Origin: a virus
Virus genome (UHGV): UHGV-0318018
Reading direction: 5' to 3' (one strand)
Length of the DNA: 11,661 nucleotides
How positions within the stretch are numbered: the stretch's first letter is position 1; every line of letters begins with the position of its first letter. Shown one piece after another: positions 1 through 11,661 of the stretch. The position numbers and the translations under genes are program-made. The notes beneath the pieces are model-generated. The model saw nothing but the letters and a program-made list of their open reading frames with translations. It was not told the DNA's origin and searched no databases.

Positions 1-23
1 TTGTTGCTGATAATGGCGAACAT

Positions 24-692
24 ATGGACTTCATTGCCGCAAATCAATGCCGGAGTCAGCCGGATGACGCAAAGCGGATAGAGTGTTATGACAAAGCTGT
101 AACTCCAACACGCACCAAAACATTAGAAAAGTTTGAAAGCAGGGATCAATGCAGGGATGAGGCGTGGGAGAAAAAAAGGCTGTCTTGCTATGATCGTTTT
201 TTTTCTCCAACATTTACTAATGCCAAGGTTGACAATGTACATAAAGACAGTAGGGATGTTGGGGACTGGAAAGTTGATATAAAAACATCTCCAATCGATG
301 ACTCTAAAAATGTTGTTATCTTTGTGAATGGTAATGATTCTTTTAGGTCCCCGTTTGGAGACAACATAACTCCAACTCTTTATATTGCGTGTAGGGAAAA
401 TAAAACAGAGCTGTTTATAGATTGGGATGTATACTTGGGGCTGAGTGAAACTACGATGATTCATCGAATAGATAAACAAAAAGCCATAAACAGAAAGTGG
501 TCTATTTCAACAAATACAAAGGCCGTCTTTTATGATGGTAATGTGATTGATTTTATAAGAAAGTTACAAAGTGGTAATCAGTTATTTGCTCAGATAACCC
601 CATATAGTGAAAGTCCGGTGAGCACAACCTTTAATCTCAAAGGTCTTTCTGAAGTTATTAAACCATTACAAGAATCATGTAACTGGAAATAG
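24..692 (+). CDS. Hypothetical protein in an AT-rich accessory gene; possibly 5'-truncated by the window edge
   Basis: 222-codon ORF, stop TAG at 690-692. The frame is open from position 3, so the true start may lie upstream. Composition is visibly more AT-rich than the phage tail genes. Contains a duplicated motif C-x9-R-[IL]-x-C-Y-D (CRSQPDDAKRIECYD and CRDEAWEKKRLSCYD). No family recognised by eye. Confidence 0.5.
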   Translation: MDFIAANQCRSQPDDAKRIECYDKAVTPTRTKTLEKFESRDQCRDEAWEKKRLSCYDRFFSPTFTNAKVDNVHKDSRDVGDWKVDIKTSPIDDSKNVVIFVNGNDSFRSPFGDNITPTLYIACRENKTELFIDWDVYLGLSETTMIHRIDKQKAINRKWSISTNTKAVFYDGNVIDFIRKLQSGNQLFAQITPYSESPVSTTFNLKGLSEVIKPLQESCNWK

Positions 693-719
693 CTATTGGT
701 GTTGTTTTCCGAATAATAA

Positions 720-752
720 CCCCGCGATTGTATATAGCGGGGTTATTATTTT
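720..752. terminator. Bidirectional rho-independent terminator between convergent genes
   Basis: Stem CCCCGC (720-725) pairs with GCGGGG (737-742) around an 11-nt loop, followed by TTATTATTTT (743-752) on + and a T-rich run on the - strand. Sits between the stop of the 24-692 ORF and the stop of the 770-1066 ORF. Confidence 0.5.
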
Positions 753-769
753 GGCCTGATTGTCAGGTA

Positions 770-1066
770 TCAGCCATATTTGCGGGCGAAATCTTCATCT
801 GAGGTGCATAGATAGATAAAAAATTCAATAAAAGCCACGATTGCCGGGATAAATGTCCAGCAAAAAATAAGGTAAAGAAATCCCTGCCCCACTTTACCTA
901 AATAAAATTTGTGTGCACCAAGACCACCTAAAAAGAAAGCCAGTAGTGCGGCTGTCATTCTGCTTTTTGAACTTGCTGTTCTTTGAGGTGCTCCACAATT
1001 GGGGCAGGATGTGGCATCTTTATGTATTTCCTTGCCGCATCCGCGGCAAAATACCATTTCACTCAT
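770..1066 (-). CDS. Small membrane protein with N-terminal zinc-ribbon (CxxC...CxxC) and TM2-like hydrophobic C-terminal domain
   Basis: 98-codon ORF. N-terminus CRGCG...CPNCG is a C4 zinc ribbon, followed by two hydrophobic segments (LLAFFLGGLGAHKFYLG and LYLIFCWTFIPAIVAFIEFFIYL). SD-like AAGGA sits 7 nt upstream of the ATG at 1066. Confidence 0.6.
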   Translation of the reverse strand: MSEMVFCRGCGKEIHKDATSCPNCGAPQRTASSKSRMTAALLAFFLGGLGAHKFYLGKVGQGFLYLIFCWTFIPAIVAFIEFFIYLCTSDEDFARKYG

Positions 1067-1170
1067 AAAGAGTTCCTTTCAAATTTAAACAAGCGTTAAG
1101 CCCACCACTCTTACTGGCGGGCCTCAATTTAAATTTGGGTGCCACTTCGACCTTACCCTGGCAACCGATT

Positions 1171-1192
1171 GACGGGGGATTGCTCCCCCGTC
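1171..1192. other. Perfect 9-bp stem hairpin (GACGGGGGA-TTGC-TCCCCCGTC) in the hok 3' flank
   Basis: Read directly from the sequence. Followed on + by GCGGTTTCC. Could be a transcript 3' structure of the hok mRNA or a terminator; function not established. Confidence 0.3.
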
Positions 1193-1201
1193 GCGGTTTC
1201 C

Positions 1202-1342
1202 TTACTGCTTACACTGTAAGAACGCCGCAAACTCCGCTCCCCAGAAGCTCATCCGTATTTCGCACAGCGAACCGTGCAGCATCCAGATGATGAGGATTGC
1301 CGTCACGCAGAACGTGATGGCCGTAAGCGATTTTTGCGACAT
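1202..1342 (-). CDS. hok: Hok/Gef-family type I toxin (small membrane-depolarising peptide)
   Basis: Hand translation of the - strand gives ATG(1342-1340) MSQKSLTAITFCVTAILIIWMLHGSLCEIRMSFWGAEFAAFLQCKQ stop TAA(1204-1202), 46 aa. It has an N-terminal TM helix followed by the SLCEIR motif and an E-x-AAF C-terminal region typical of Hok/HokA-E peptides. AAGGAG SD lies 8 nt upstream. It is absent from the ORF track because it is under 60 aa. Confidence 0.6.
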   Translation of the reverse strand: MSQKSLTAITFCVTAILIIWMLHGSLCEIRMSFWGAEFAAFLQCKQ

Positions 1343-1472
1343 AGCACTTGCTCCTTTTCCGGAGAGGCGCTAACCTTTCACTTGTCAAGGTAATGCGGTT
1401 AGGGCCTCGGTTAAACAGAAATGTTTTCCGGGGCCTTTCCACATCTGGCCTTCGGGTATTCCCTCCGACCAT
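1209..1472 (-). CDS. mok-like overlapping reading frame (modulation of killing) covering the hok gene in another frame
   Basis: 87-codon ORF that starts 130 nt upstream of the hok ATG and ends 7 nt before the hok stop, in a different frame. This geometry matches the mok/hok arrangement of plasmid R1. The sequence itself is not conserved enough to confirm. Confidence 0.3.
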   Translation of the reverse strand: MVGGNTRRPDVERPRKTFLFNRGPNRITLTSERLAPLRKRSKCYVAKIAYGHHVLRDGNPHHLDAARFAVRNTDELLGSGVCGVLTV

Positions 1473-1532
1473 CAGCCGAAAGGCACCCGCGCGTAATCTA
1501 TCGCTTTTTTGTTACTCCGGCAATTCTGTTAG

Positions 1533-1793
1533 TTAATTCTGAGATAAAGGCAAACTCATCTGATTGTTTCCCCTGTGTGAAGCTGGCAGCTCATGCCACG
1601 GGATACCTTCTGAAGAGTGAACGCCGGAGGCGTGTTTTGATGTGAATTTATGGAAAGCTTCCAGTGTTGAGAAGCATACGCCGCATTCCAGGTTGTTACA
1701 CTGGTAATACTTTTGCCGCACGGTGTTTGAATCATTTTCCGGACGACTGGTGCGGATACGGGCAGATGCGCCACAAAGCGGACAACGGAACAT
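1533..1793 (-). CDS. ogr: Ogr/Delta-family zinc-finger late transcription activator
   Basis: 86 aa beginning MFRCPLCG...YYQCNNLECGVCF, with the four Cys of the Ogr zinc finger at positions 4, 7, 32 and 37. Strong SD AAGGGAGG sits 5 nt upstream of the ATG at 1793. Lies immediately downstream of gpD as in P2. Confidence 0.85.
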   Translation of the reverse strand: MFRCPLCGASARIRTSRPENDSNTVRQKYYQCNNLECGVCFSTLEAFHKFTSKHASGVHSSEGIPWHELPASHRGNNQMSLPLSQN

Positions 1794-1835
1794 AGCGACC
1801 TCCCTTAACGTGGTGCTGCTGCTATTCTAAGTTGC

Positions 1836-2945
1836 TCACTCTGTTTCTGCTATCCATTCCGGGATTTTTGCCTCAAGCTCAAGCTGCGTGGTAAAGCCGC
1901 TGTTATCGATGGTGTGCTCGGCTTTTGCAATAATCCAGTCCTGATTATCAATCTCGCTTTTAAATCCTGTTACCGTGCCATGCATTTCGGGGTAGAGTTC
2001 TGCACGACCACGTGCCAGCGTGATGGAGAATGATGCGGCTCCGCGTTGTAGCTGCTGCCACTTTGCCGCCGCTGCGCGTCTTGCTGCCTGCTCGTTCTGA
2101 TAAGTCTTGCGTAACACAAACACATTGCCTTCCGCGCCTTCCATATAATCACCTTCACGGCTGCTGCTTTTCTCCTTTTTGGGTTTTGGCGGTTTGCGGC
2201 GTTTCACGCTGACTTTTTTCTTTTTCCCGTAATTAAGATCAAGCCAGTAAGCGCGTACCCCCGTATACGCCTCGCGGTCAGCAATGCGGAACTGATGGCG
2301 ATCGCCGCTACTGCGTGTGATGGCGAACGATGGCAACGGCTGGCCCTGTGCGTTCACGCCACCGCCGGGCATGATGAATAACAGATTACCGCTTTTTACC
2401 GTGGTGATTGCGCCCAGCATTTCCGCCATGCGCGTAAGGAAGGACATGTCACTTTCTTCGGTCTGGTCGGCGTGGTCGATTTCGATATCCATCAGCATTT
2501 CGCTGATTTGCGGTTTCAGACCGTACCGATGAGCGATGGCGGATACCACACGCTCAACGGTCACATCATGCCAGGACACCTCACGTTTAACGTTAAATTC
2601 ATCCCGAAAATCTGCGCTTCTGGCTGAAACAGTCAGCCTGTCCGGCGGTCCTTCGTGAGCGATTTCATCAACAATGTAAGTGCCTTTTTCTGTCAGCGGT
2701 TCTCCTTTCCAGCCAATGAGAACCGTCAGGCGCGCGCCCCGTGGCGGTAGCTGCAACTGACCATCTGCATCATCCAGCGTGATGGTGAGCTGGTCTGCTT
2801 CAAATCCCCGGTTGTCGGTCAGTGACAGGCTCATCAGGCGCTCTGCCACGCCTGACAGCGTTTTACCCTCCGCGAGAATATCAAAATCCGGCATTTTCAC
2901 GGGGTCTGTGCTCTGACTGAGCAATTGCATGGTGGTGTCGGTCAT
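1836..2945 (-). CDS. P2 gpD-like tail protein (late control gene D family)
   Basis: Long ORF 1836-2966. The preferred start is the ATG at 2945 (MTDTTMQLL...), preceded by GGGAGGG at 5-nt spacing. Size (about 369 aa) and position next to ogr match P2 gpD. Contains an unusual Lys/Arg-rich patch GKKKKVSVKRRKPPKPKKEK. Confidence 0.85.
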   Translation of the reverse strand: MTDTTMQLLSQSTDPVKMPDFDILAEGKTLSGVAERLMSLSLTDNRGFEADQLTITLDDADGQLQLPPRGARLTVLIGWKGEPLTEKGTYIVDEIAHEGPPDRLTVSARSADFRDEFNVKREVSWHDVTVERVVSAIAHRYGLKPQISEMLMDIEIDHADQTEESDMSFLTRMAEMLGAITTVKSGNLLFIMPGGGVNAQGQPLPSFAITRSSGDRHQFRIADREAYTGVRAYWLDLNYGKKKKVSVKRRKPPKPKKEKSSSREGDYMEGAEGNVFVLRKTYQNEQAARRAAAAKWQQLQRGAASFSITLARGRAELYPEMHGTVTGFKSEIDNQDWIIAKAEHTIDNSGFTTQLELEAKIPEWIAETE

Positions 2946-3101
2946 CTTTCCCTCCCTGTGCGGCATGGTCGCATGTGCGTGCGGAGGGGGTTACTGCTTT
3001 TTGTTGTCGCCGTGGCGGGAGAACGGCGCAGGGGTGAGATTACGCGCGTGGTGGGTGATGATTGTTGCCGAATCATTTAACGGATACAAGGGGCTGAAGC
3101 T
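2946..3101. promoter_or_regulatory. Divergent intergenic region expected to carry promoters for D-ogr (leftward) and the FI-U operon (rightward)
   Basis: 156-bp gap between divergent start codons, each with a good SD. No exact Ogr box (TGT-N12-ACA) was found by eye, so promoter positions are not assigned. Confidence 0.35.
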
Positions 3102-4286
3102 ATGAGTGAAACTCGTTTTCATGGTGCCCGTGTCACGGAAAGTACCGACCTGGTAACAGCGGTTAATGATGTTGATTCCAGCGTTATCGGTATCGTGGCA
3201 ACGGCGGATGATGCGGATGCGGAGCTGTTCCCGCTGAACAAGCCCACACTGCTGACCCGCGTCAATGACGTGCTGGGAAAATGCGGTACTACGGGGACGC
3301 TTTATCGTGCGCTTAAGGCTATCGCAGACCAGGTGAGCACAAAGGTGATCGTCGTTCGCGTGGCTGAACACAAAAAAGAAGGCGGTAAGACGCAGGATCA
3401 ACTGGTTATCGGTGGTTCTGAGGATGACGGCAGCTATACGGGGATGTATGCGCTGCTTGTTGCAGAGCAGGATGAAAGCATCGGATACCGTCCGCGCATT
3501 CTGGCTGCGCCGGAGCTGGACACGGAGGCGGTGACAAAATCTCTGTGCGTGATTGCAGGTAAACTGCGCGCGTTTGTGTATGCCTCATGTCATGGCTGTG
3601 ACACGATGGCCGAGGCAATTACCTACCGCCAGAAATTCAACGAACGTGAGGTGATGCTCTTATGGCCGGACTTTATCGCCTACAACCCGAAAAGTGGCAA
3701 AAACGAAACGTTCCCCGCGCCTGCCTATGCGTGCGGCCTTCGTGCGTACATTGACCATGAGCAGGGCTGGCACAAATCGCTGTCCAACGTTCCGGTTAAA
3801 AATGTGCTGGGGATGTCCAGGCATGTGTTCTGGTCGTTGCAGGCCGAAGACAGTGATGCCAACAGCCTCAACAACAAAGAAATCACGACCATTATTCGTC
3901 GCAACGGGTTCCGCTTCTGGGGCAACCGCACACCGGAAACGAACGCCTACATCTTTGAGGTGTATACCCGAACCGCACAGGTGCTGGCTGATTCAATTGC
4001 GGAAGCGCAGTTTGAAACCATCGACAGTCCACTGACGCCTGCGAATGTGAAGGATGTTATCAGTGCCATCAGGGCAAAACTGGATTCACTGGTTACTGCC
4101 GGGAAACTGATTGGGGCGTCGTGCTGGTATGACGTGGTGGATAACGGCACCACGAATTTACGTCAGGGGCGCGTGCGTATTCGCTACAAATATACGCCTG
4201 TTCCCCCGCTGGAAGACATGGAGCTTTACCAGTCGTTTACTGATGAATTCTTTGGTCCCGCATTTGCGGTGCTGGGAGGTGCCTGA
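3102..4286 (+). CDS. Contractile tail sheath protein (P2 gpFI family)
   Basis: 394 aa. Conserved sheath blocks visible, e.g. DADAE.FPLNKP, KLRAF.Y, WPDF.A, EQGWHK.LSNV, IRR.GFRFWGNRT, NYTRTAQV, YTPVPPLE. AAGGGG SD upstream of the ATG. Confidence 0.9.
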   Translation: MSETRFHGARVTESTDLVTAVNDVDSSVIGIVATADDADAELFPLNKPTLLTRVNDVLGKCGTTGTLYRALKAIADQVSTKVIVVRVAEHKKEGGKTQDQLVIGGSEDDGSYTGMYALLVAEQDESIGYRPRILAAPELDTEAVTKSLCVIAGKLRAFVYASCHGCDTMAEAITYRQKFNEREVMLLWPDFIAYNPKSGKNETFPAPAYACGLRAYIDHEQGWHKSLSNVPVKNVLGMSRHVFWSLQAEDSDANSLNNKEITTIIRRNGFRFWGNRTPETNAYIFEVYTRTAQVLADSIAEAQFETIDSPLTPANVKDVISAIRAKLDSLVTAGKLIGASCWYDVVDNGTTNLRQGRVRIRYKYTPVPPLEDMELYQSFTDEFFGPAFAVLGGA

Positions 4287-4798
4287 TGGCTGTACCAAAA
4301 CATCTTCGCTTTTTTACGCTGTTTGTGGATGGTGAAAACGAAGTGGGTAAGGTGACGTCCGTCACTCTACCTAAGCTGACGCGCAAAACCGACAGCTACC
4401 GGGGTGGTGGCATGATGGGTGCGGTAAGTATTGATCTCGGTCTGGACGACTCCGCGCTTGATGCGAGCTTTGTCATGGGGGGCGCAGTTCGTGAGCTGTT
4501 CCTTAAGTATGGCGGCACGATTGACGGCACGCTGCTGCGTTTTGCGGGTGAATACTACACCGATGCAGAAAGCGACCTGTATGAAGTCGAAATGCGCGGA
4601 CGTGTGACGGAAATTGATATGGGGGAAGCCAAACAGGGCGAAGCCACATCACACAATTACGCCATTAAAAACACCTACTACAAGCTGAGTGTTAACGATC
4701 GCCCGTTGTGGGAGATTGACCTGCTGAACTTCATTTACCGGAAGGACGGCAAGGACATTGTGCCCGATCGCATCCGTTCCGCGCTCGGGCTTGGCTGA
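4286..4798 (+). CDS. Tail tube protein (P2 gpFII family)
   Basis: 170 aa. The start overlaps the FI stop by 1 nt (TGATG), with GGGAGG SD. Motifs VTLPKLTRK..YRG.GM and LRFAG.Y are typical of FII tube proteins. Confidence 0.9.
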   Translation: MAVPKHLRFFTLFVDGENEVGKVTSVTLPKLTRKTDSYRGGGMMGAVSIDLGLDDSALDASFVMGGAVRELFLKYGGTIDGTLLRFAGEYYTDAESDLYEVEMRGRVTEIDMGEAKQGEATSHNYAIKNTYYKLSVNDRPLWEIDLLNFIYRKDGKDIVPDRIRSALGLG

Positions 4799-4852
4799 TA
4801 AGTAATATGCAGGCGGCGCAGTGCGTCGCCTCTGACTGAAAGGAGTTTCCTG

Positions 4853-5218
4853 ATGAAAGAGACGAAAAACATCGATACCGAAAACACGGTAGTTACTGAC
4901 ACTGTGAAAGAAACCAGTGAGCGTGGCGTAAAACTTACCCAACCAATTGAGCGAGGCGGCGAAAAAATCACGTATGTGGAGATCACCGGGGCTATTGAGC
5001 AGGCTGGATCTCTGCGAGATTTGTCGCTGTCTGATGTGCTGAATCTGAAAGCGGAATCCATGTTTACGCTGCTGTCACGCGTGACATCACCGCGACTGGA
5101 TGAAGTGACGATCAAAAAAATGGCATCCCGTGACTTTATTCAGTTATGTGTGGTTGCCGTAAATTTTTTGAGCGGTGCGGACTCTGGCGGGAAGAACGAA
5201 CAGGCGACGGAAGCCTGA
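4853..5218 (+). CDS. Tail assembly chaperone gpE (zero-frame product)
   Basis: 121-codon ORF with AAAGGAG SD 7 nt upstream. It sits between the tube and tape measure genes and carries a slippery TTTTTTG near its 3' end, as in P2 E. Confidence 0.7.
   Translation: MKETKNIDTENTVVTDTVKETSERGVKLTQPIERGGEKITYVEITGAIEQAGSLRDLSLSDVLNLKAESMFTLLSRVTSPRLDEVTIKKMASRDFIQLCVVAVNFLSGADSGGKNEQATEA
5164..5170 (+). other. Programmed -1 ribosomal frameshift slippery heptamer TTTTTTG (E to E')
   Basis: T TTT TTG in the E frame (codons NFL). The -1 frame continues open to the TGA at 5380-5382. The same heptamer mediates the E/E' frameshift in P2. Confidence 0.6.
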
Positions 5219-5382
5219 TCACGGTTGTGTGCTTTGAGCACATAGAAGACTTTGTGGCGGATATTGCCGCCATTTTTAACTGGTCGCCCGCCGAAATCTT
5301 CATGATGACGCCCGGCGAAGTGGTTAGCTGGCGTGAGCGGGCGGCACTTCGCAGCGGGAATGCAGACAATGAAGACTCTTGA
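5170..5382 (+). CDS. E' extension; the fusion product E+E' is made by a -1 frameshift at 5164-5170
   Basis: The -1 frame is open from the slippery site to 5382 (ERCGLWREE...FVADIAAIFNWSPAEIF...LRSGNADNEDS). This is the G/GT-like chaperone arrangement upstream of the tape measure gene. Confidence 0.6.
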   Translation, partial: ERCGLWREERTGDGSLITVVCFEHIEDFVADIAAIFNWSPAEIFMMTPGEVVSWRERAALRSGNADNEDS

Positions 5383-8176
5383 TATCCGGGTCGCTTTCAG
5401 CGCCGTTGACAGGCTGACCCGGCCTGCCGAAAACGCCCGCCGCCTGATGGGGCAGTTTGGTGACTCCATCCAGCGAACGCAGGGGGCGATCAAAAATCTC
5501 GAGCGTCAGGCGCGATCATTTGAGCGCGCCCGCGACGCTGTCAGTAAAGCGGATGCGGGTATCGTGAAAGCACGACGCCAGCTTAACGCCCTTAATCAGT
5601 TACAACGCACGGGTACAGTGCTCAGCGAAAAACAACAAAAGCTGATGCAGCAGTTAAGCACCCGGCTTGAACGCCTGAATGAATCGCGCACACGGGAAAT
5701 TCAAAAAATGCGGGAGCTTGGCGGAGAGCTGAAACGCCACGGCATTTCCCTGACAGGCAGCGATAACACCATCCAGCAGGCCATCAGACGCACCGAACAG
5801 TACAACAACCAGCTTGAACGCGAACGGCAGGCGCTTGCACGTGTAACGCGGGCGCGTGAGCGGTATTCGCGCGCGCAGGAAACAGCGGGAAAACTGAAAA
5901 CAGGTGGTGCGCTGGCAACTGGTGCGGCAGCGGCGGGCGGCTATGCTGCCGGGCGTTTTTTGCAGCCTGCGATCGGGTTCGGCAAAGAGATGTCCCGCGT
6001 TCAGGCACTGACGCGAATCGACAAAAACAGCCCGCAGTTTAAGGCGCTGCGTGAGCAGGCGTTAAAACTTGGCTCTGAAACACAGTTTACTGCGAGTGAT
6101 GCCGCCAGTGGACAGAGCTTTCTGGCAATGGCTGGTTTTACTCCGCAGGCCATTCAGGCTGCACTTCCCGGCGTGCTGAGCATGGCAACGGCTGGCGGTA
6201 TGGATCTCGGCGAGACGGCGGATATTGGCTCAAATATCCTGACGCAGTTCGGCCTTTCTGCTGACCAGATGGACCGGGTCGGTGACACGCTCACCGCAGC
6301 GTTTACCCGTACCAACACTGACCTTCGCGCACTTGGCGAAACCATGAAATATGCAGGTCCGGTGGCGGGCAAGCTGGGAATATCGCTGGAGCAGGCCGCA
6401 GCGATGGCGGGCGTACTGGCGAATATGGGTATCAGGGGAAGTGATGCCGGGACGGCAATGCGTGCCAGCCTGGCTCGTCTGGCATCACCGCCAAAGGCGG
6501 CGGCAGAAGCTCTGAAAGAGCTGGGCGTGTCCGTCTCTGATGCGAATGGCAAAATGCGCCCGATGGAAGATCTGCTGGCTGACCTTTATAAAGCCACCCG
6601 CAAATACGGGGAAGTTGACCGGGTATCGTTCTTTAAGGACATTGCCGGGGGAGAGGCTTTCACATCGTTTATGGCACTCGTTGATGCGGCGGGTGACGGT
6701 TCCTTACCCAAACTGAGAAAAGAACTTGAGGGCGCACGCGGTGAGGCTGAACGCACGGCAAAGGTGATGGCCGACAACCTTGATGGCGACCTGAAAAATC
6801 TGGACAGCGCATGGGAAGGTCTGCGTATTCGCATTGCAGATCTGATTGACGGTCCGCTGCGTTCTGTCACGCAGTGGCTCACGCGGGTGGTCTCAAAGGT
6901 GACGGCGCTGGCGCAGGCCCATCCGGCACTGACGCGCCAGCTACTGATAGCAGGCGGTGCGCTGCTGGCAATGACTGCAACGGTCGGCTCGTTGTCGCTG
7001 GTTATTGGGGTGCTTTACGGGAAGCTGGCCACCCTGCGTCTTGGTTTCGACATTCTTACCCGGTCAATGAATGTCGTCAGGGTGTTGCCTGCGCTGTGGG
7101 GAATGGTGACGGGTTCCGTTTCTTTACTGGGAGGCGCCATCGGGGCGTTGTTCAGTCCGGTTGGTCTTATCGTGGCTGCGCTTGCCGGAGCTGCCGTTCT
7201 TATCTGGAAATACTGGGATCCCATCAGGGCATTTTTTGCCGGGGTGTTCAGCGGGATTATGGAAAGGCTGACCCCGTTGCGCGAAACCTTTGAACGGTTT
7301 GGTCCTGTTTTTGACGCAATCGGAAGCGGGATCAGCCAGGTGTTTAACTGGTTTAAATCGCTGCTGTCACCGATGGAATCCAGCAAGGAAACGCTGGATA
7401 AATGTACCAGTGCTGGCGAGATATTCGGTAACGTTCTTGGTGGCGCGTTACAACTTGTTCTGACGCCTGCAAAAATGCTGCTGGATACGCTGGCGTGGAT
7501 ACTTGAAAAACTTGGCGTCCTTCCGGATGAAGCGGAAAGGGCGCGCAAGAAAATCGAAGACGCACAGCGTGCGGCCATTCTTCAGGACAAGGTTGCCTTG
7601 CTTCAGGGGGACCTGGCGAAAATCAATCCGCCGAAGCCTGTGGAAAATGGCAATGGCACCGGAGGTGATAAACCCAAAGACAACAAACCGCTCACAGACA
7701 GCAATACCGGGACGCTACGCAGACTCAGCAAAATTGCTGATAACACAGGTAAGCTGGTTGATGAGACGAAAAAACGCATTGGCCCCGGCGATATTGTCTT
7801 TAAGAACCTGCCCCGCGCACTTGCTGTTCGTGGGGAGTGGCAGGAGCGGAAGATTGCGCAGGTCAGTAAGTCTGCCCCCGCAATGAATATCACACCCGTG
7901 GTTCCGGCTCCGCTGCCTCCGGCGCTGGTCCCTGTTGTTGCGACCAGCTCCCGCCCGGTGGCAGAGGCCATACGATCGCCAGTGGCATCAGTTCCTGCAA
8001 CTTCCCGTAACCGGGAACCTGTTGCCTCCGGATTTGGCGGTGAAATTCATGTTCATCTGCATAACGTTGTTACGCAGAATCCCCGCGAACTGGCGAAACT
8101 GGTCGGTGAAATGGTCAGGGCAGAAATGGAACGGCGCGCCCGTGCCGGGCGTGGCAGTTTTTACGATAAAGATTGA
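5369..8176 (+). CDS. Tail tape measure protein (P2 gpT family)
   Basis: Long ORF open from the GTG at 5333; in-frame ATGs at 5360 and 5369. 5369 is preferred because GGGAA lies 8 nt upstream. Shows a coiled-coil-rich N-terminus, a TMP core (DLRALGETMKYAGPVAGKLGISLEQAAAMAGVLANMGIRGSDAGTAMRASLARL) and Gly/Ala-rich hydrophobic segments. Confidence 0.85.
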   Translation: MKTLDIRVAFSAVDRLTRPAENARRLMGQFGDSIQRTQGAIKNLERQARSFERARDAVSKADAGIVKARRQLNALNQLQRTGTVLSEKQQKLMQQLSTRLERLNESRTREIQKMRELGGELKRHGISLTGSDNTIQQAIRRTEQYNNQLERERQALARVTRARERYSRAQETAGKLKTGGALATGAAAAGGYAAGRFLQPAIGFGKEMSRVQALTRIDKNSPQFKALREQALKLGSETQFTASDAASGQSFLAMAGFTPQAIQAALPGVLSMATAGGMDLGETADIGSNILTQFGLSADQMDRVGDTLTAAFTRTNTDLRALGETMKYAGPVAGKLGISLEQAAAMAGVLANMGIRGSDAGTAMRASLARLASPPKAAAEALKELGVSVSDANGKMRPMEDLLADLYKATRKYGEVDRVSFFKDIAGGEAFTSFMALVDAAGDGSLPKLRKELEGARGEAERTAKVMADNLDGDLKNLDSAWEGLRIRIADLIDGPLRSVTQWLTRVVSKVTALAQAHPALTRQLLIAGGALLAMTATVGSLSLVIGVLYGKLATLRLGFDILTRSMNVVRVLPALWGMVTGSVSLLGGAIGALFSPVGLIVAALAGAAVLIWKYWDPIRAFFAGVFSGIMERLTPLRETFERFGPVFDAIGSGISQVFNWFKSLLSPMESSKETLDKCTSAGEIFGNVLGGALQLVLTPAKMLLDTLAWILEKLGVLPDEAERARKKIEDAQRAAILQDKVALLQGDLAKINPPKPVENGNGTGGDKPKDNKPLTDSNTGTLRRLSKIADNTGKLVDETKKRIGPGDIVFKNLPRALAVRGEWQERKIAQVSKSAPAMNITPVVPAPLPPALVPVVATSSRPVAEAIRSPVASVPATSRNREPVASGFGGEIHVHLHNVVTQNPRELAKLVGEMVRAEMERRARAGRGSFYDKD

Positions 8177-8188
8177 GGAGTCATGGCC

Positions 8189-8677
8189 ATGATGATGATC
8201 TACGGCATGTTTGTTTTTGAGCTGCGCACGCTGCCGCATCAGCAGTTACAGCAAAACAAAAGCTGGCGGCATGTGAAAAATGAACGCGTTAACCGTTCAG
8301 CAAGCTGGCAGTATATCGGTGCAGGTGATGATCGCATCGTGCTTTCTGGTGTGCTTTATCCTGAAATTACAGGTGGCGAAGTGTCGCTGTCGCTGCTGAC
8401 CACGCAGGCGTATACAGGACACCCCTGGCCTCTGATTGATGGCGTCGGGCAGATTTACGGCATGTATGTCCTGACCGACACGAATACGACCCGTTCCGAG
8501 TTTGATTGCTACGGCAAGGCGAAAAAGATAGAGTTTTCACTGACACTTGAACGCTGTGATGAAGATTTGCGGGAGCGACTACAATCCTCATCGTTCAGCG
8601 ATATGCTGTCCGGCCTCAAAGATAAGGTGACGTCATCCCTTAACAGCGCGGCCAGCTCCGTTAAAGGGCTGTTTTGA
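8189..8677 (+). CDS. Tail protein gpU (P2 U family)
   Basis: ORF from 8183 (MAMMMIYGMFVFELRTLPHQQLQQNKSWRH...). The ATG at 8189 is favoured because GAGGAG at 8175-8180 then has 8-nt spacing. Motifs LQQ..SWRH and LSG.LYPE.TGG are shared with P2 gpU. Confidence 0.85.
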   Translation: MMMIYGMFVFELRTLPHQQLQQNKSWRHVKNERVNRSASWQYIGAGDDRIVLSGVLYPEITGGEVSLSLLTTQAYTGHPWPLIDGVGQIYGMYVLTDTNTTRSEFDCYGKAKKIEFSLTLERCDEDLRERLQSSSFSDMLSGLKDKVTSSLNSAASSVKGLF

Positions 8678-8684
8678 TTAACGC

Positions 8685-8714
8685 AAAACCGCTAATGGTC
8701 AGATTAGCGGTTTT
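8685..8714. terminator. Bidirectional terminator hairpin between U and the invertase gene
   Basis: AAAACCGCTAAT (8685-8696) pairs with ATTAGCGGTTTT (8703-8714) around a 6-nt loop, with T-runs on both strands. The invertase stop codon lies within the right arm. Confidence 0.5.
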
Positions 8715-9303
8715 CATTTTCCTGAGTCTGCCTGGTTGTTTCTTCAGCCTGTATATCGCCTACAGGGTGATAACGATAAATCGTCGATATGCCGATGTCG
8801 TAAATGATCGCCAGTTGTTTCCTGTCATGACCGTTTTTAATCAGCCTCGCTATTTGCTCGTGTTGTTCTTTTGTCAACTTCGGGCGACGTCCGCCAATGC
8901 GTCCTTGTGCGCGTGCTGCTGCCAGCCCGGCCAGTGTACGCTCTACAATTAATTCACGTTCCATTTCGGCTAAAGCCCCCATGACGTGAAAAAAGAAACG
9001 CCCCATGGGTGTTGATGTGTCAATGCTGTCCGTCAGACTACGGAAATTAACACCTTTTTCCCGCAATTCCTCAATAAGCGTGATCAGGTGTTTCATACTT
9101 CTGCCCAGTCTGTCCAGCTTCCAGACAACCAGCGTATCTCCTTCTGATAGCGTTCTGAGCAGTTTTTTCAATCCCGGTCTGGCTGATTTCGTTCCGCTGA
9201 TTTTATCTTCAAAAATCAGTTCACATCCTGCGCAGTTCAGTGCATTGCGTTGTAAATCCGTGTTTTGGTCATTTGTTGACACACGAATATAGCCAATTTG
9301 CAT
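8704..9303 (-). CDS. Serine DNA invertase, Pin/Gin/Cin/Hin family
   Basis: The true start is the ATG at 9303 (MQIGYIRVSTNDQNTDLQRNAL...), with AAAGAGGA SD. Resolvase catalytic N-terminus with active-site Ser in GYIRVSTNDQ, plus the motifs LVVWKLDRLGRS, GRFFFHVMGALAEMERELIVERTLAGLAAARAQGRIGGRRP and a C-terminal HTH. The longer ORF-track start at 9432 is an upstream artefact. Confidence 0.9.
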   Translation of the reverse strand: MQIGYIRVSTNDQNTDLQRNALNCAGCELIFEDKISGTKSARPGLKKLLRTLSEGDTLVVWKLDRLGRSMKHLITLIEELREKGVNFRSLTDSIDTSTPMGRFFFHVMGALAEMERELIVERTLAGLAAARAQGRIGGRRPKLTKEQHEQIARLIKNGHDRKQLAIIYDIGISTIYRYHPVGDIQAEETTRQTQENENR

Positions 9304-9357
9304 AAAAAACATCCTCTTTGTTTCGTGAAAAATACATAGTTGGTATAGGTAGGGATA

Positions 9358-9383
9358 AAGACGAAAACGTTGGTTTAGGAGAA
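9358..9383. promoter_or_regulatory. Candidate 26-bp invertase crossover site (cix/gix-like), overlapping the invertase promoter region
   Basis: AAGACGAAAACG-TT-GGTTTAGGAGAA. The right half, read on the other strand, is TTCTCCTAAACC, resembling Hin-family half-sites (TT.TC..AAACC). The left half is degenerate. It lies 55-80 bp upstream of the invertase ATG, where gixR/cixL-type sites sit. Not verified. Confidence 0.25.
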
Positions 9384-9521
9384 GGCTCGGCGCTACCCGT
9401 TGGTGTGCCTGTTCCGTGGCCCACCGCCACACCGCCAGCAGGCTGGTTAAAGTGCGACGGGCGCGCCTTTACAAAAGAACAATATCCTGTTCTGGCCAGA
9501 GTCTACCCGACCCTCCGTCTT
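9366..9521 (+). pseudogene. Tail-fibre collar fragment (NVGLGEGSALPVGVPVPWPTATPPAGWLKCDGRAFTKEQYPVLARVYPTLRL), truncated at a recombination junction
   Basis: Conserved tail-fibre collar motif G.P.PWP..PAGWL.C.G..F....YP.LA..YP. Homology ends abruptly at 9521/9522, where inverted repeat IR-A begins. There is no start codon and no N-terminal shaft. Confidence 0.45.
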
Positions 9522-9631
9522 ATATCAGCACGGCACCTGAAATCAGCTGGCCGGAAGCGCCACTGGCACTTGCCAGCTGAACGGTATCACGCCGCCCTCA
9601 CGATATAGTTAAACGCGATATTGCGGGGGCG
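9522..9631. repeat. IR-A left arm (110 bp), inverted copy of 10103-10212
   Basis: Reverse complement of 10103-10212 with 4 mismatches by hand alignment. Contains the fibre 3' end (RPRNIAFNYIVRAA stop) on the - strand and a Tfa 3' end on the + strand. Confidence 0.85.
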
Positions 9632-10148
9632 GGTTATGTTAAAGAATGCTCCGTTTAATTCGGCTTTTGCGCGACTGTTTGTTCCACCCAGAATTGCGTA
9701 CCACTTGCCTGTTGGTGTGCCTGTTCCGTGGCCCACCGCCACACCGCCAGCAGGCTGGTTACAGTGCAACGGAGCTACGTTCACCAAAGGACAATATCCT
9801 GTTCTGGCCAGAGTCTACCCGACCCTCCGTCTTCCCGATTTGCGCGGTGAGTTTATCCGTGGATGGGACGGTGGTCGCAAGGTTGATACCGGGCGTGCGC
9901 TACTTTCATTTCAGGAAGGGACTATCGTATCCGGTTTTGATGATAATGATACCGGAGATATCAGTTCGCTCGGCTCTACACAATATGGATTTGGTGACGC
10001 TTTAACCTCTAATCAACTGGGGGTCATAAATGACAAAAAGTGGATATTTGATGCATCCTCTAAAGGTGCACAAAGATATGACTGGTGGGCTTATGTATCA
10101 GCTCGCCCCCGCAATATCGCATTTAACTATATCGTGAGGGCGGCGTGA
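9621..10148 (+). CDS. Tail-fibre C-terminal cassette 1 (collar plus receptor-binding tip), lacking the N-terminal shaft
   Basis: Open frame containing LPVGVPVPWPTATPPAGWLQCNGATFTKGQYPVLARVYPTLRLPDLRGEFIRGWDGGRKVDTGRA..., ending RPRNIAFNYIVRAA. Collar motifs match Mu S / P1 S / P2 H-type fibres. Only a TTG or an internal ATG (9636) is available as a start, so it is probably silent unless fused to a constant region. Confidence 0.55.
   Translation: MRGRVMLKNAPFNSAFARLFVPPRIAYHLPVGVPVPWPTATPPAGWLQCNGATFTKGQYPVLARVYPTLRLPDLRGEFIRGWDGGRKVDTGRALLSFQEGTIVSGFDDNDTGDISSLGSTQYGFGDALTSNQLGVINDKKWIFDASSKGAQRYDWWAYVSARPRNIAFNYIVRAA
9756..9870. repeat. IR-B left arm (115 bp, collar-coding), inverted copy of 11098-11212
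   Basis: Reverse complement of 11098-11212 with 2 mismatches. Encodes WLQCNGATFTK.QYPVLARVYPTLRLPDLRGEFIRGWD in both cassettes. Confidence 0.85.
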
Positions 10149-10212
10149 TACCGTTCAGCCGGCAAGCGCCAGTGGCGCTTCCGGCCAGCTGATTTCAGGT
10201 GCCTTGCTGATA
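10103..10212. repeat. IR-A right arm (110 bp)
   Basis: See IR-A left arm. Spans the convergent 3' ends of cassette 1 (+) and the tail-fibre assembly gene (-). Confidence 0.85.
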
Positions 10213-10769
10213 TTCAGTGCGTTCAGCTCGTCGATATAATCCAGCACGGCGTTCAGTTTTGCCGTTTCTTCTGGTGTCAGACTGCGACCAGCACGCAGTT
10301 TGAGGTTGATAAGATCGACGGACGCCATCGCCTGTTTCACCCGTTGCTGGCGTTGCTGTCTGGCAACCTCCAGTTCTGCGGCTCGCTGCCGTTCAGTATC
10401 GGTTACCCACGCCTCACCGTTCCAGGTATCCCATGGCGTGGCTGGCTGTTTTGTGGTGGTGTCCGCCGGGTAATCACCCGGTTGGGTAATCAGAACGGGG
10501 TTACCGTTCTCCGTGCTGTATACCGTCTCGCCGCGGTGATCAGGCACATGCTCCCACCCGTTCAGCGTGGCAGTCCGGCAAACCACGTAACCCGAAATTG
10601 CCTCCGGCGGTGCATCGGCGCACGAATGTGCCGGAGTACCCACCCCAAGGGCGAGATACTCCACAGAGGATGAGGTGTATTCCCGGGTTTCCTCGTCATA
10701 GTGATATACAGTGATATCGCCCGCTACAGTGGCGATACCGTTTTCATCCAGAACTGCAGTGTTACTCAT
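10155..10769 (-). CDS. Tail fibre assembly protein (Tfa / P2 gpG / Mu U-like chaperone)
   Basis: 204 aa. The ATG at 10769-10767 overlaps the stop of cassette 2 (TAATG), with GAGGG SD. The C-terminal half (TDTERQRAAELEVARQQRQ...PEISWPEAP) has the acidic/coiled-coil and WPE features typical of Tfa chaperones. Confidence 0.8.
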   Translation of the reverse strand: MSNTAVLDENGIATVAGDITVYHYDEETREYTSSSVEYLALGVGTPAHSCADAPPEAISGYVVCRTATLNGWEHVPDHRGETVYSTENGNPVLITQPGDYPADTTTKQPATPWDTWNGEAWVTDTERQRAAELEVARQQRQQRVKQAMASVDLINLKLRAGRSLTPEETAKLNAVLDYIDELNALNISKAPEISWPEAPLALAG

Positions 10770-11220
10770 TAAACTGCCCTCACAATGTAATTAAGTGCAA
10801 TGCTACGGGGTCTGACAGTGATACCCTTCGCATACCCGCTTCTGATAGAGGTCAGAATAGTAGCCTGCATACCATTGTCTGACATTGCCATGACAGGATC
10901 GCTGAATGTTGTCCCGTCCGGCATTTTAAAGCTGCCCTCACGAAGGTCTGTAATGGAATCTTCATTGTTGAATCCCATGCCGACTATCCCCGAGGTTCCC
11001 GTAGTGTCCTGGTTATAATAATCCAGCATTGCTGTTCTTAACAGCGTTGCCCCTTGTGCGGACAGCAACTTACGTCCTGTATCAACTTTGCGCCCGTCGT
11101 CCCATCCACGGATAAACTCACCGCGTAAATCGGGAAGACGGAGGGTCGGGTAGACTCTGGCCAGAACAGGATATTGTTCTTTGGTGAACGTAGCTCCGTT
11201 GCACTGTAACCATGCAACAT
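10769..11220 (-). CDS. Tail-fibre C-terminal cassette 2 (collar plus distinct tip), start-less, translationally coupled to the downstream Tfa
   Basis: Hand translation of the - strand gives one continuous frame: WLQCNGATFTKEQYPVLARVYPTLRLPDLRGEFIRGWDDGRKVDTGRKLLSAQGATLLRTAMLDYYNQD...ITVRPRSIALNYIVRAV stop. It is open back to an in-frame stop at 11245-11243. The ORF-track TTG start at 11068 is internal, and there is no ATG. Confidence 0.55.
11098..11212. repeat. IR-B right arm (115 bp)
   Basis: See IR-B left arm. Confidence 0.85.
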
Positions 11221-11486
11221 TTATTCGTACAGCTTTGCAGGATTATTACGGTTACGATCTGAATACTAATGTCAAAGTAGGTATCGCTTTTGCTACTGCT
11301 GATTCTGTTATAACCGTTGGAAACCCAGCTAATCCTAAAGCAGGAAATAATAGCGATTATGTTCCTGCATCAGCAGATAACTCTATAACGGGTATTCAAA
11401 GGACAGCGGAGGATAATTTTACCGGGGCATGGATATCAATGCGCCCCCGCAATGTTGCGTTTAATTACATCGTAAGGGCCGCATAA
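11211..11486 (+). CDS. Tail-fibre tip cassette 3 (collar-less), start-less
   Basis: Frame reads HATFIRTALQDYYGYDLNTNVKVGIAFATADSVITVGNPANPKAGNNSDYVPASADNSITGIQRTAEDNFTGAWISMRPRNVAFNYIVRAA stop. It aligns with the post-collar part of cassette 2 (ATLLRTAMLDYYNQD...) and shares the C-terminal RPRN.AFNYIVRAA end. There is no in-frame ATG; the ORF-track N-terminus MVNVAPLHCN is the antisense of the collar. Confidence 0.45.
   Translation, partial: HATFIRTALQDYYGYDLNTNVKVGIAFATADSVITVGNPANPKAGNNSDYVPASADNSITGIQRTAEDNFTGAWISMRPRNVAFNYIVRAA
11251..11368. repeat. IR-C left arm (118 bp, perfect), inverted copy of 11544-11661
   Basis: Exact reverse-complement identity over 118 bp, verified base by base. 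The inner end carries a 29-bp near-palindrome GCAGGAAATAATAGCGATTATGTTCCTGC (11340-11368). Confidence 0.9.
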
Positions 11487-11573
11487 AAACGTTGGTTTGG
11501 GGGAAGGCTCTGCATTGCCTGTTGGTGTGCCTGTTCCGTGGCCGCAGGAACATAATCGCTATTATTTCCTGCT
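11476..11573 (+). pseudogene. Truncated collar-start fragment (GPHKNVGLGEGSALPVGVPVPWP) fused at 11543/11544 to inverted cassette sequence
   Basis: Third direct copy of the CTGTTGGTGTGCCTGTTCCGTGGCC collar start. Homology to the other copies ends at 11543, and the frame then runs through the antisense of cassette 3 to a TAG. Confidence 0.4.
11480..11505. promoter_or_regulatory. Second candidate cix/gix-like site, directly after the cassette 3 stop codon
   Basis: CGCATAAAAACG-TT-GGTTTGGGGGAA. The half-site read on the other strand is TTCCCCCAAACC. Same orientation as the 9358-9383 candidate, and followed by the same collar-start sequence. Confidence 0.2.
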
Positions 11574-11661
11574 TTAGGATTAGCTGGGTTTCCAACGGTT
11601 ATAACAGAATCAGCAGTAGCAAAAGCGATACCTACTTTGACATTAGTATTCAGATCGTAAC
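11544..11661. repeat. IR-C right arm (at least 118 bp; truncated by the window end)
   Basis: Exact reverse complement of 11251-11368. On the - strand it encodes the same tip segment (...DLNTNVKVGIAFATADSVITVGNPANPKAGNNSDYVPA), entering from beyond the window. Confidence 0.9.

Follow-up and report, generated by a model that had tools for sequence, protein, structure and literature searches.

Two probable crossover sites of a Min-type multiple DNA-inversion system in the tail-fibre region of a P88-like E. coli prophage

Two 26-bp sequences, designated S1 and S2, in a viral DNA stretch of 11,661 nucleotides (the window, which denotes the whole stretch that was analysed) are very probably crossover sites of a Min-type multiple DNA-inversion system in a P88-like prophage. 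That this copy of S1 and S2 is active in inversion is presumed on grounds that lie outside the window itself.

The window corresponds to the tail module of an E. coli prophage of the P88-like type (Xuanwuvirus, P2 family). It contains the genes for gpD (1836-2966, minus strand) and, on the plus strand, for the sheath (3102-4286), the tube (4286-4798), the tape measure protein (5333-8176) and gpU (8183-8677). The gpU gene is convergent with an invertase gene, and fibre C-terminal cassettes and one chaperone gene follow on both strands from position 9358 onward. P88 and complete E. coli chromosomes share a gene order in which gpU is followed by the convergent invertase gene, the cassettes, the chaperone gene, and, on the opposite strand, the constant fibre gene. 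From this synteny with P88-like prophages, the constant fibre gene is therefore expected to lie to the right of position 11661. At the other end, the P88-like homology begins at about position 765, and an ORF of the VasI family is found to the left of it (24-692). In a near-identical isolate contig (L021; L numbers denote individual loci of the comparison), tamA, tamB, and a GGACT-family gene precede the VasI-family ORF, and other prophages of the family carry a VasI-family gene at the same end, which is, however, oppositely oriented and shows no nucleotide similarity.

The invertase gene and the two 26-bp sites

The invertase gene (8704-9303, minus strand) encodes a serine DNA invertase of the Din family with 199 amino acids, which is similar to Gin, Cin, Pin, and Min. 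The protein contains the Pfam domains Resolvase (1.5e-51) and HTH_7 (1.4e-12), and it matched the Gin structure 4m6f with an E-value of 3e-91 across residues 1-185. Its Ser9 is part of the conserved N-terminal motif YIRVSTNDQ (YVRVSTNDQ in Gin), and it thus has the N-terminal catalytic domain with a serine near position 9-10 and the C-terminal helix-turn-helix of Din-family recombinases. The similarity of the protein was measured against Gin only. An identical protein was found in 7224 blocks of public assemblies.

S1 is the invertase-proximal site (9358-9383, minus strand, TTCTCCTAAACC AA CGTTTTCGTCTT, core at 9370-9371), and S2 is an internal, stop-linked site (11480-11505, minus strand, TTCCCCCAAACC AA CGTTTTTATGCG, core at 11492-11493). 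Re-reading of the sequence confirmed both repeats at the positions given in the original prediction. There, they had been described as half-sites; in fact, S1 and S2 are both complete sites with the features of the Din family, namely a length of 26 bp, two imperfectly symmetric 12-bp half-sites (TTnnCnnAAACC), and a 2-bp core that the partner sites have in common. The inner half of S1 codes for the collar start GLGE, and its outer half is the side that faces the invertase promoter region. As predicted, S1 is located 55-80 nt upstream of the invertase ATG (at 9303, minus strand), which is similar to the spacing of gixR in phage Mu, 57-82 nt upstream of gin. The outer half of S2 contains the TAA stop codon (11484-11486) of the upstream cassette C, the "cassette 3" of the original prediction. 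The second copy had been said to follow this stop codon directly, but the stop codon is situated inside the site. Both S1 and S2 are followed by NVGLGEGSALPVGVPVPWP, the common collar start that had been noted at the outset, and at both sites the inner half and the next 40 nt are coding and are conserved at the protein level. Together with their collars, S1 and S2 form a 58-nt repeat with 88% identity.

Nine published sites of the hix, gix, cix, pix, and bix types (Table 3, PMC3241671) served to build a position weight matrix; the mix sites were kept out of it to avoid circularity. When the window was scored with this matrix, as had been suggested, S1 and S2 were the two best hits with 21.5 and 17.8 bits, respectively, and the next best place reached 8.3 bits. 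In shuffled windows the maximal score was 9.6 bits on average and 19.6 bits at the highest, and the S2 score was surpassed in 1 of 200 shuffles, so that S2 is only borderline when the matrix is considered without other evidence. Its identity is settled by the 58-nt repeat that it shares with S1 and the collar. In addition, a search of the window with the 20-mer TTCTCCTAAACCAACGTTTT, allowing up to three mismatches, retrieved S1 and S2 only, both on the minus strand, and yielded no match in 200 dinucleotide shuffles. The outer halves, too, agree with a known system: that of S1 differs by one mismatch from mixMI''L' of p15B (CGTTTTAGTCTT), and that of S2 differs by one mismatch from mixMr''N' (CGTTTTTATGCC). 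The matrix scores and these outer halves bear out the proposal that the repeats are cix/gix-like crossover sequences of the adjacent invertase.

A mismatch search and the matrix revealed no third site, no inverted partner, and no quasi-site in the window in either orientation, and nothing exceeded the shuffle background. Hin and Gin act on supercoiled DNA and depend on a Fis-bound enhancer and on an inverted orientation of the sites; between direct sites they generate no deletions. The window contains two direct sites and not the two inverted sites flanking invertible DNA that are typical of the Din family; this is because the boundary of the window cuts the locus, not because the system fails.

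A Fis-like 15-mer, GAAGATAAAATCAGC, is present at 9196-9210, corresponding to nt 94-108 of the invertase gene, and GAAGATAAATTAAGC occupies the same gene position in Mu gin. The enhancer of Din-family systems has two Fis sites with a spacing of about 48 bp in the 5' part of the invertase gene. A convincing second Fis site was not found at a distance of 48 bp to either side. By its sequence, the 15-mer is a candidate for one half of a recombinational enhancer, and the invertase presumably depends on Fis and an enhancer. A simple consensus scan around S1 retrieved no sigma-70-like promoter for the invertase gene. Between the convergent genes for gpU and the invertase, a perfect 12-nt inverted repeat was observed (AAAACCGCTAAT at 8685-8696 and ATTAGCGGTTTT at 8703-8714), which may be a bidirectional terminator.

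Site classes and their recombination in related loci

For comparison, 19 related loci were scanned, which included a phage, complete chromosomes, and a P1-like plasmid, and ten of which encode the identical invertase protein. They contained 71 sites, and the core was AA in all 71. The sites comprised three inner-half variants and three classes of outer halves. The invertase-proximal outer half is CGTTTTCGT[C/T]TT or CGTTTATCTCTC. The stop-linked outer half is CGTTTT[C/T]ATGC[T/G/C], with minor variants that include CGTTTTCATACT and CGTTTCTATGCC, and it represents the TAA or TGA stop codon of the preceding cassette on the other strand. The outer half at the junction with the constant gene is GGTAATCAAGAA or GGTAATTGAGGA, and the form GGTAATCAAGAA is identical to mixQ''R' of p15B.

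Both window sites have counterparts in these loci. The outer half of S1 is present in identical form beside the identical invertase protein in six of them (L011, L012, L014, L018, L019, and L020), and the 26-mer class of S2 occurs with the same flank in four (L003, L005, L010, and L025). The number of sites per locus varied from two to eight, and up to five direct sites were stacked beside the invertase gene. Because the relatives stack direct sites in this way, direct copies of S1 and of the S2 class are normal; in L010, S1 and a stop-linked site are in direct orientation at a distance of 514 bp. The original prediction had pointed out that direct copies cannot invert with each other, that an inverted partner would have to lie outside the window, and that it should be sought at the constant fibre region. 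This is supported by the relatives, as an inverted constant-gene site pairs with the invertase-proximal site in 18 of the 19 loci, and the only locus without such a pair has been truncated by an IS element.

Two further features are characteristic of Min-type systems. The presence of more than two sites, with the internal ones overlapping the end of the previous cassette, is seen in S2 and the relatives. The fusion of a constant 5' part to a 3' cassette is seen in the relatives only, the constant segment being outside the window. In L003, the fibre reads in frame through the site (…KDVLNYL/GLGEGSALPVGVPVPWP…) into cassette C, and the complete cassette C thus forms the expressed fibre tip.

Several side observations were made in these loci. 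Among L011-L020, the same invertase protein is accompanied by two to eight sites and cassettes. L016 and L017 were considered as a case in which cassettes had been gained or lost through deletion between direct sites, and this idea was dropped, as their relationship is not simple: they have two mismatches in 6 kb, and their different cassette contents cannot be reduced to simple inversions or deletions. Insertions of the IS26 family have truncated the cassette array in L012 (8587-9291) and have split the invertase gene in L025 (4313-5017), the P1-like plasmid with the same cassettes. RefSeq annotates silent cassettes as pseudogenes ("phage tail protein, incomplete, missing N-terminus") in L003 (6870-7388), L004, L005, L009, and L025; these are intact silent 3' cassettes behind a crossover site.

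Several lines of evidence show that these site classes recombine. Throughout the 19 loci, the genomes combine inner and outer halves differently, with the point of exchange exactly at the core. The near-clonal loci L014 and L020 have three mismatches in a 6-kb flank and differ by an inversion of 2561 bp with 99.84% identity (11106-13666 in reverse-complement coordinates), one end of which lies in a stop-linked site and the other in a constant-gene site. This pair is a natural example of a fibre switch, which holds for the site classes and not for the copy in the window. For prophage Phi2 of strain EC958, PacBio reads revealed both orientations at TCCTCAATTACC-TT-GGTTTAGGAGAA and GAGAGATAAACG-TT-GGTTTGGGGGAA (Forde 2014, PMC4134206), and these site sequences match sites in L002, L005, and L010. 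In a P2-like prophage of the EPEC strain E2348/69, a shufflon with three repeats was described, and four coexisting variants were detected by PCR (Goldberg 2014, PMC4272514). The suggestion that the window sites may be relics was not upheld: both the sites and the invertase gene are intact, and inversion at the same site classes distinguishes near-clonal relatives from each other.

Integrity of the window to the right of position 9521

Mapping on the relatives divided the window into five blocks, which end at 9521, 9704, 11212, 11543, and 11661. The first block includes S1 and the collar start of a silent cassette (9384-9521, plus strand), which is cut off at 9521, where the frame enters unrelated sequence. 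The second (9522-9704, minus strand) contains the 3'-terminal 59 nt of a tail-fibre assembly gene (+) and the final 118 nt of a cassette (-), and this isolated piece is 100% identical to many E. coli prophages. The third block (9705-11212) begins with cassette body A (9705-10148, plus strand), a collar with a variable C-terminus that lacks the crossover site and the first 29 nt. It is followed by the gene for the tail-fibre assembly protein or chaperone (10155-10769, minus strand, 204 amino acids, Pfam Caudo_TAP), the exact protein of which was retrieved from just two short contigs (Logan SRR28073334 and ENA ERZ28659911), and by cassette body B (10769-11212, minus strand), which lacks the site and roughly 80 nt at the start of the collar. 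The fourth block (11213-11543) contains the variable C-terminal 91 codons of cassette C without site or collar (11213-11486, plus strand), S2, and a collar start that is cut off after 19 codons (11506-11543, plus strand). The fifth (11544-11661, minus strand) extends to the end of the window and is the perfect reverse complement of 11251-11368, a part of cassette C, so that the two form a perfect inverted duplication of 118 nt.

The four junctions between the blocks (9521/9522, 9704/9705, 11212/11213, and 11543/11544; J1-J4) are blunt and have no microhomology, not even the 2-bp core, and each of them abuts the end of an exact repeat of 29-48 nt within the window. The cassette bodies A, B, and C lack a site and a part of the collar, and S1 and S2 have retained mere collar stubs. 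Site-specific exchange never parts the inner half-site from its cassette, and therefore the site-less cassette bodies did not arise by such an exchange. The isolate contig L021 has one mismatch over positions 1-9521; exactly at 9521 it parts from the window and runs on into an intact cassette. In one ENA metagenome (ERZ28659911), the regions 1-8420 and 9871-11097 are found on separate scaffolds, and a Logan contig (SRR28073334) spans 9841-11125. The junctions were absent from 5426 complete E. coli genomes, IMG/VR, the JGI metagenomes, the GTDB representative genomes, and the 25 fetched loci, and an exact look-up among 15 billion proteins did not retrieve the ORFs that span J1-J3. Over the blocks 9522-9704 and 11213-11543, the window agrees with another prophage type, DA33135, at 100% identity.

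Taken together, this circumstantial evidence suggests that the part of the window beyond 9521 was most likely put together as a chimeric scaffold from short metagenome de Bruijn contigs, the source of which was most likely a population mixed for inversion isomers and perhaps also for prophages. Blunt joins without runs of N are unusual for scaffolders, which argues against a chimera. Two other origins of the junctions were rejected. Products of the invertase at secondary sites would be expected to share the core, yet the parents of J1-J4 do not have even these 2 bp in common. Simple path switches in a de Bruijn graph do not fit parents without overlap; block ends at the ends of exact repeats fit abutted contigs. 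Because the window is probably chimeric, the direct orientation of S1 and S2 and their spacing of 2122 bp are unreliable. The direct orientation that had been reported is thus correct for the window as it is written and need not apply to a real molecule, the S2 block being joined bluntly on both sides. S2 with its immediate flanks (11213-11543) is a natural unit. Both site-linked cassettes are truncated in the window; if the window were real, recombination at S1 or S2 would therefore yield a truncated fibre.

One alternative to a chimeric arrangement of the two sites would be that an inversion between S1 and the constant-region site of a three-site array had brought S1 and S2 into direct orientation, in which case the window would show a true isomer with only its interior misassembled. 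We regard this as possible, if somewhat less than probable. Such isomers are seen in complete genomes, as in L010 with its distance of 514 bp and in the similar stacks of L011-L020, and the collar at S1 is 99.4% identical to the collar that follows the stop-linked site in L003, as predicted for site-specific exchange. However, the spacing of 2122 bp compares with 439-544 bp for a single cassette, and the orientation of the S2 block, with its blunt joins on either side, is not anchored to S1. Furthermore, this block is 100% identical to the DA33135 prophage type and only 97% identical to the P88-like relatives, and it may stem from another prophage or strain in the sample.

It is unlikely that the locus is real as written, i.e., a decayed multi-cassette array in which S1 and S2 are intact but useless relics. 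The early ends of both site-linked reading frames, the lack of sites in all three cassette bodies, and the perfect 118-nt inverted duplication would be in accord with decay, and related arrays do decay, as exemplified by the IS26-truncated loci L012 and L025. However, four independent blunt joins as well as duplications would be needed within 2.1 kb, although the blocks are still 98-100% identical to intact relatives, and a contig with one mismatch in 9.5 kb has kept an intact cassette after S1. Also, all four junctions are located at ends of exact repeats, like contig ends, neither they nor the J1-J3 ORFs were found in any other assembly or protein set searched, and the pieces are separate scaffolds in the same metagenome.

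A quite different view, to which we give very little credence, is that the head-to-tail direct stacks form an integron-like platform, at which whole cassettes are gained and lost when the invertase, on rare occasions, excises and integrates DNA between direct sites. If true, it would explain the range of two to eight sites with an identical invertase, and the blunt junctions of the window could have arisen in a real molecule by aberrant recombination instead of through errors of assembly.

Finally, a chance resemblance to invertase sites, kept only as coding sequence of the collar start, can be dismissed for practical purposes: the inner half and the 40 nt downstream are indeed coding and conserved as protein, and the S2 matrix score lies inside the extreme tail of the shuffles, but the non-coding or differently coding outer halves fit the published mix classes, 71 of 71 sites share the AA core, the halves reassort exactly at this core between genomes, a natural inversion ends at these cores, and inversion at the same sequences was observed experimentally (PMC4134206, PMC4272514).

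Proposed switch and comparison with known systems

With S1 and S2 regarded as Min-type crossover sites, the following mechanism can be proposed. By flipping DNA, the system would switch the receptor-binding C-terminus of the tail fibre of the P88-like prophage. Every silent cassette would begin with an inner half-site, which reads TTCNCCNAAACC on the opposite strand and codes for the GLGE of the collar. The outer half would be contributed by the promoter side of the invertase gene (S1), by the stop codon that closes the cassette before it (S2), or, at the partner site, by the terminal part of the constant fibre gene. The invertase would cleave the AA/TT core of two inverted sites and then exchange them, whereby the constant N-terminus of the fibre would be joined in frame (…NYL/GLGEGSALPVG…) to another cassette. 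Direct sites would not recombine with each other, and each of them may pair with the oppositely oriented site of the constant region; stacks of direct sites beside the invertase gene would be normal because each can find this inverted partner.

The Min system of p15B from E. coli 15T-, which has six mix sites, was reportedly described by Sandmeier et al. in 1990 (PNAS 87:1109) and by Iida et al. in 1990. Its mix sites are TTCCCCCAAACC AA CGTTTTAGTCTT adjacent to the invertase gene, …AA CGTTTTTATGCC/TG at the four internal positions, and …AA GGTAATCAAGAA in the constant gene (PMC3241671). The system described here has the same three site classes with nearly the same sequences: the invertase-proximal outer half is CGTTTTAGTCTT in p15B and CGTTTTCGTCTT in the window, the stop-linked internal outer half is CGTTTTTATGCC/TG in p15B and CGTTTTTATGCG in the window, and the constant-gene site GGTAATCAAGAA is identical in relatives with the same invertase. 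Both systems share the inner half TTCCCC[C/T]AAACC together with the AA core, and both have head-to-tail 3' cassettes of a fibre gene with a serine invertase of the Din family beside the array; the P1-like plasmid carries the same cassettes with about 94% nucleotide identity. However, the host of the present system is a chromosomal P88-like prophage of the P2 family, with the invertase gene convergent with gpU, and not a P1-related plasmid, and the number of sites varies from two to eight among the relatives.

The Gin/gix system of the Mu G segment and the Cin/cix system of the P1 C segment likewise have 26-bp sites with 12-bp half-sites and a 2-bp core, a terminal site about 55 nt upstream of the invertase start, and a switch of the fibre C-terminus and the chaperone that alters the host range. 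In contrast to the present system, they have only two sites and two alternative fibres, and their variable parts are unrelated to the collar-domain cassettes. Furthermore, the gix core is GA in place of AA, and the repeats of Mu are 34 bp long and identical. Collar-domain cassettes are shared with EC958 Phi2 (PMC4134206) and the E2348/69 shufflon (PMC4272514), which are versions with two and three sites; the S1 outer half CGTTTTCGTCTT is the P88-like variant, whereas Phi2 has the variant CGTTTATCTCTC. The R64 shufflon (Rci/sfx) resembles the present system in having a constant 5' part, alternative 3' cassettes, sites in both orientations, and inversion in preference to deletion. However, Rci is a tyrosine recombinase that acts on asymmetric sfx sites and targets pilV, and in sequence and mechanism it is unrelated to the serine invertase system.

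The system identified in the window is therefore an already known one, i.e., the multi-cassette (Min) form of the host-range switch of Mu, P1, e14, and p15B. E. coli prophages carry this fibre switch very commonly, and thousands of public assemblies contain the exact invertase. The 26-bp sites are useful for annotation in that they indicate where silent fibre cassettes start, and they explain why such cassettes have been called "partial tail fibre protein" pseudogenes. They also flag regions in which assemblies of short reads and of metagenomes are interrupted or turn out chimeric, the window probably being an example.
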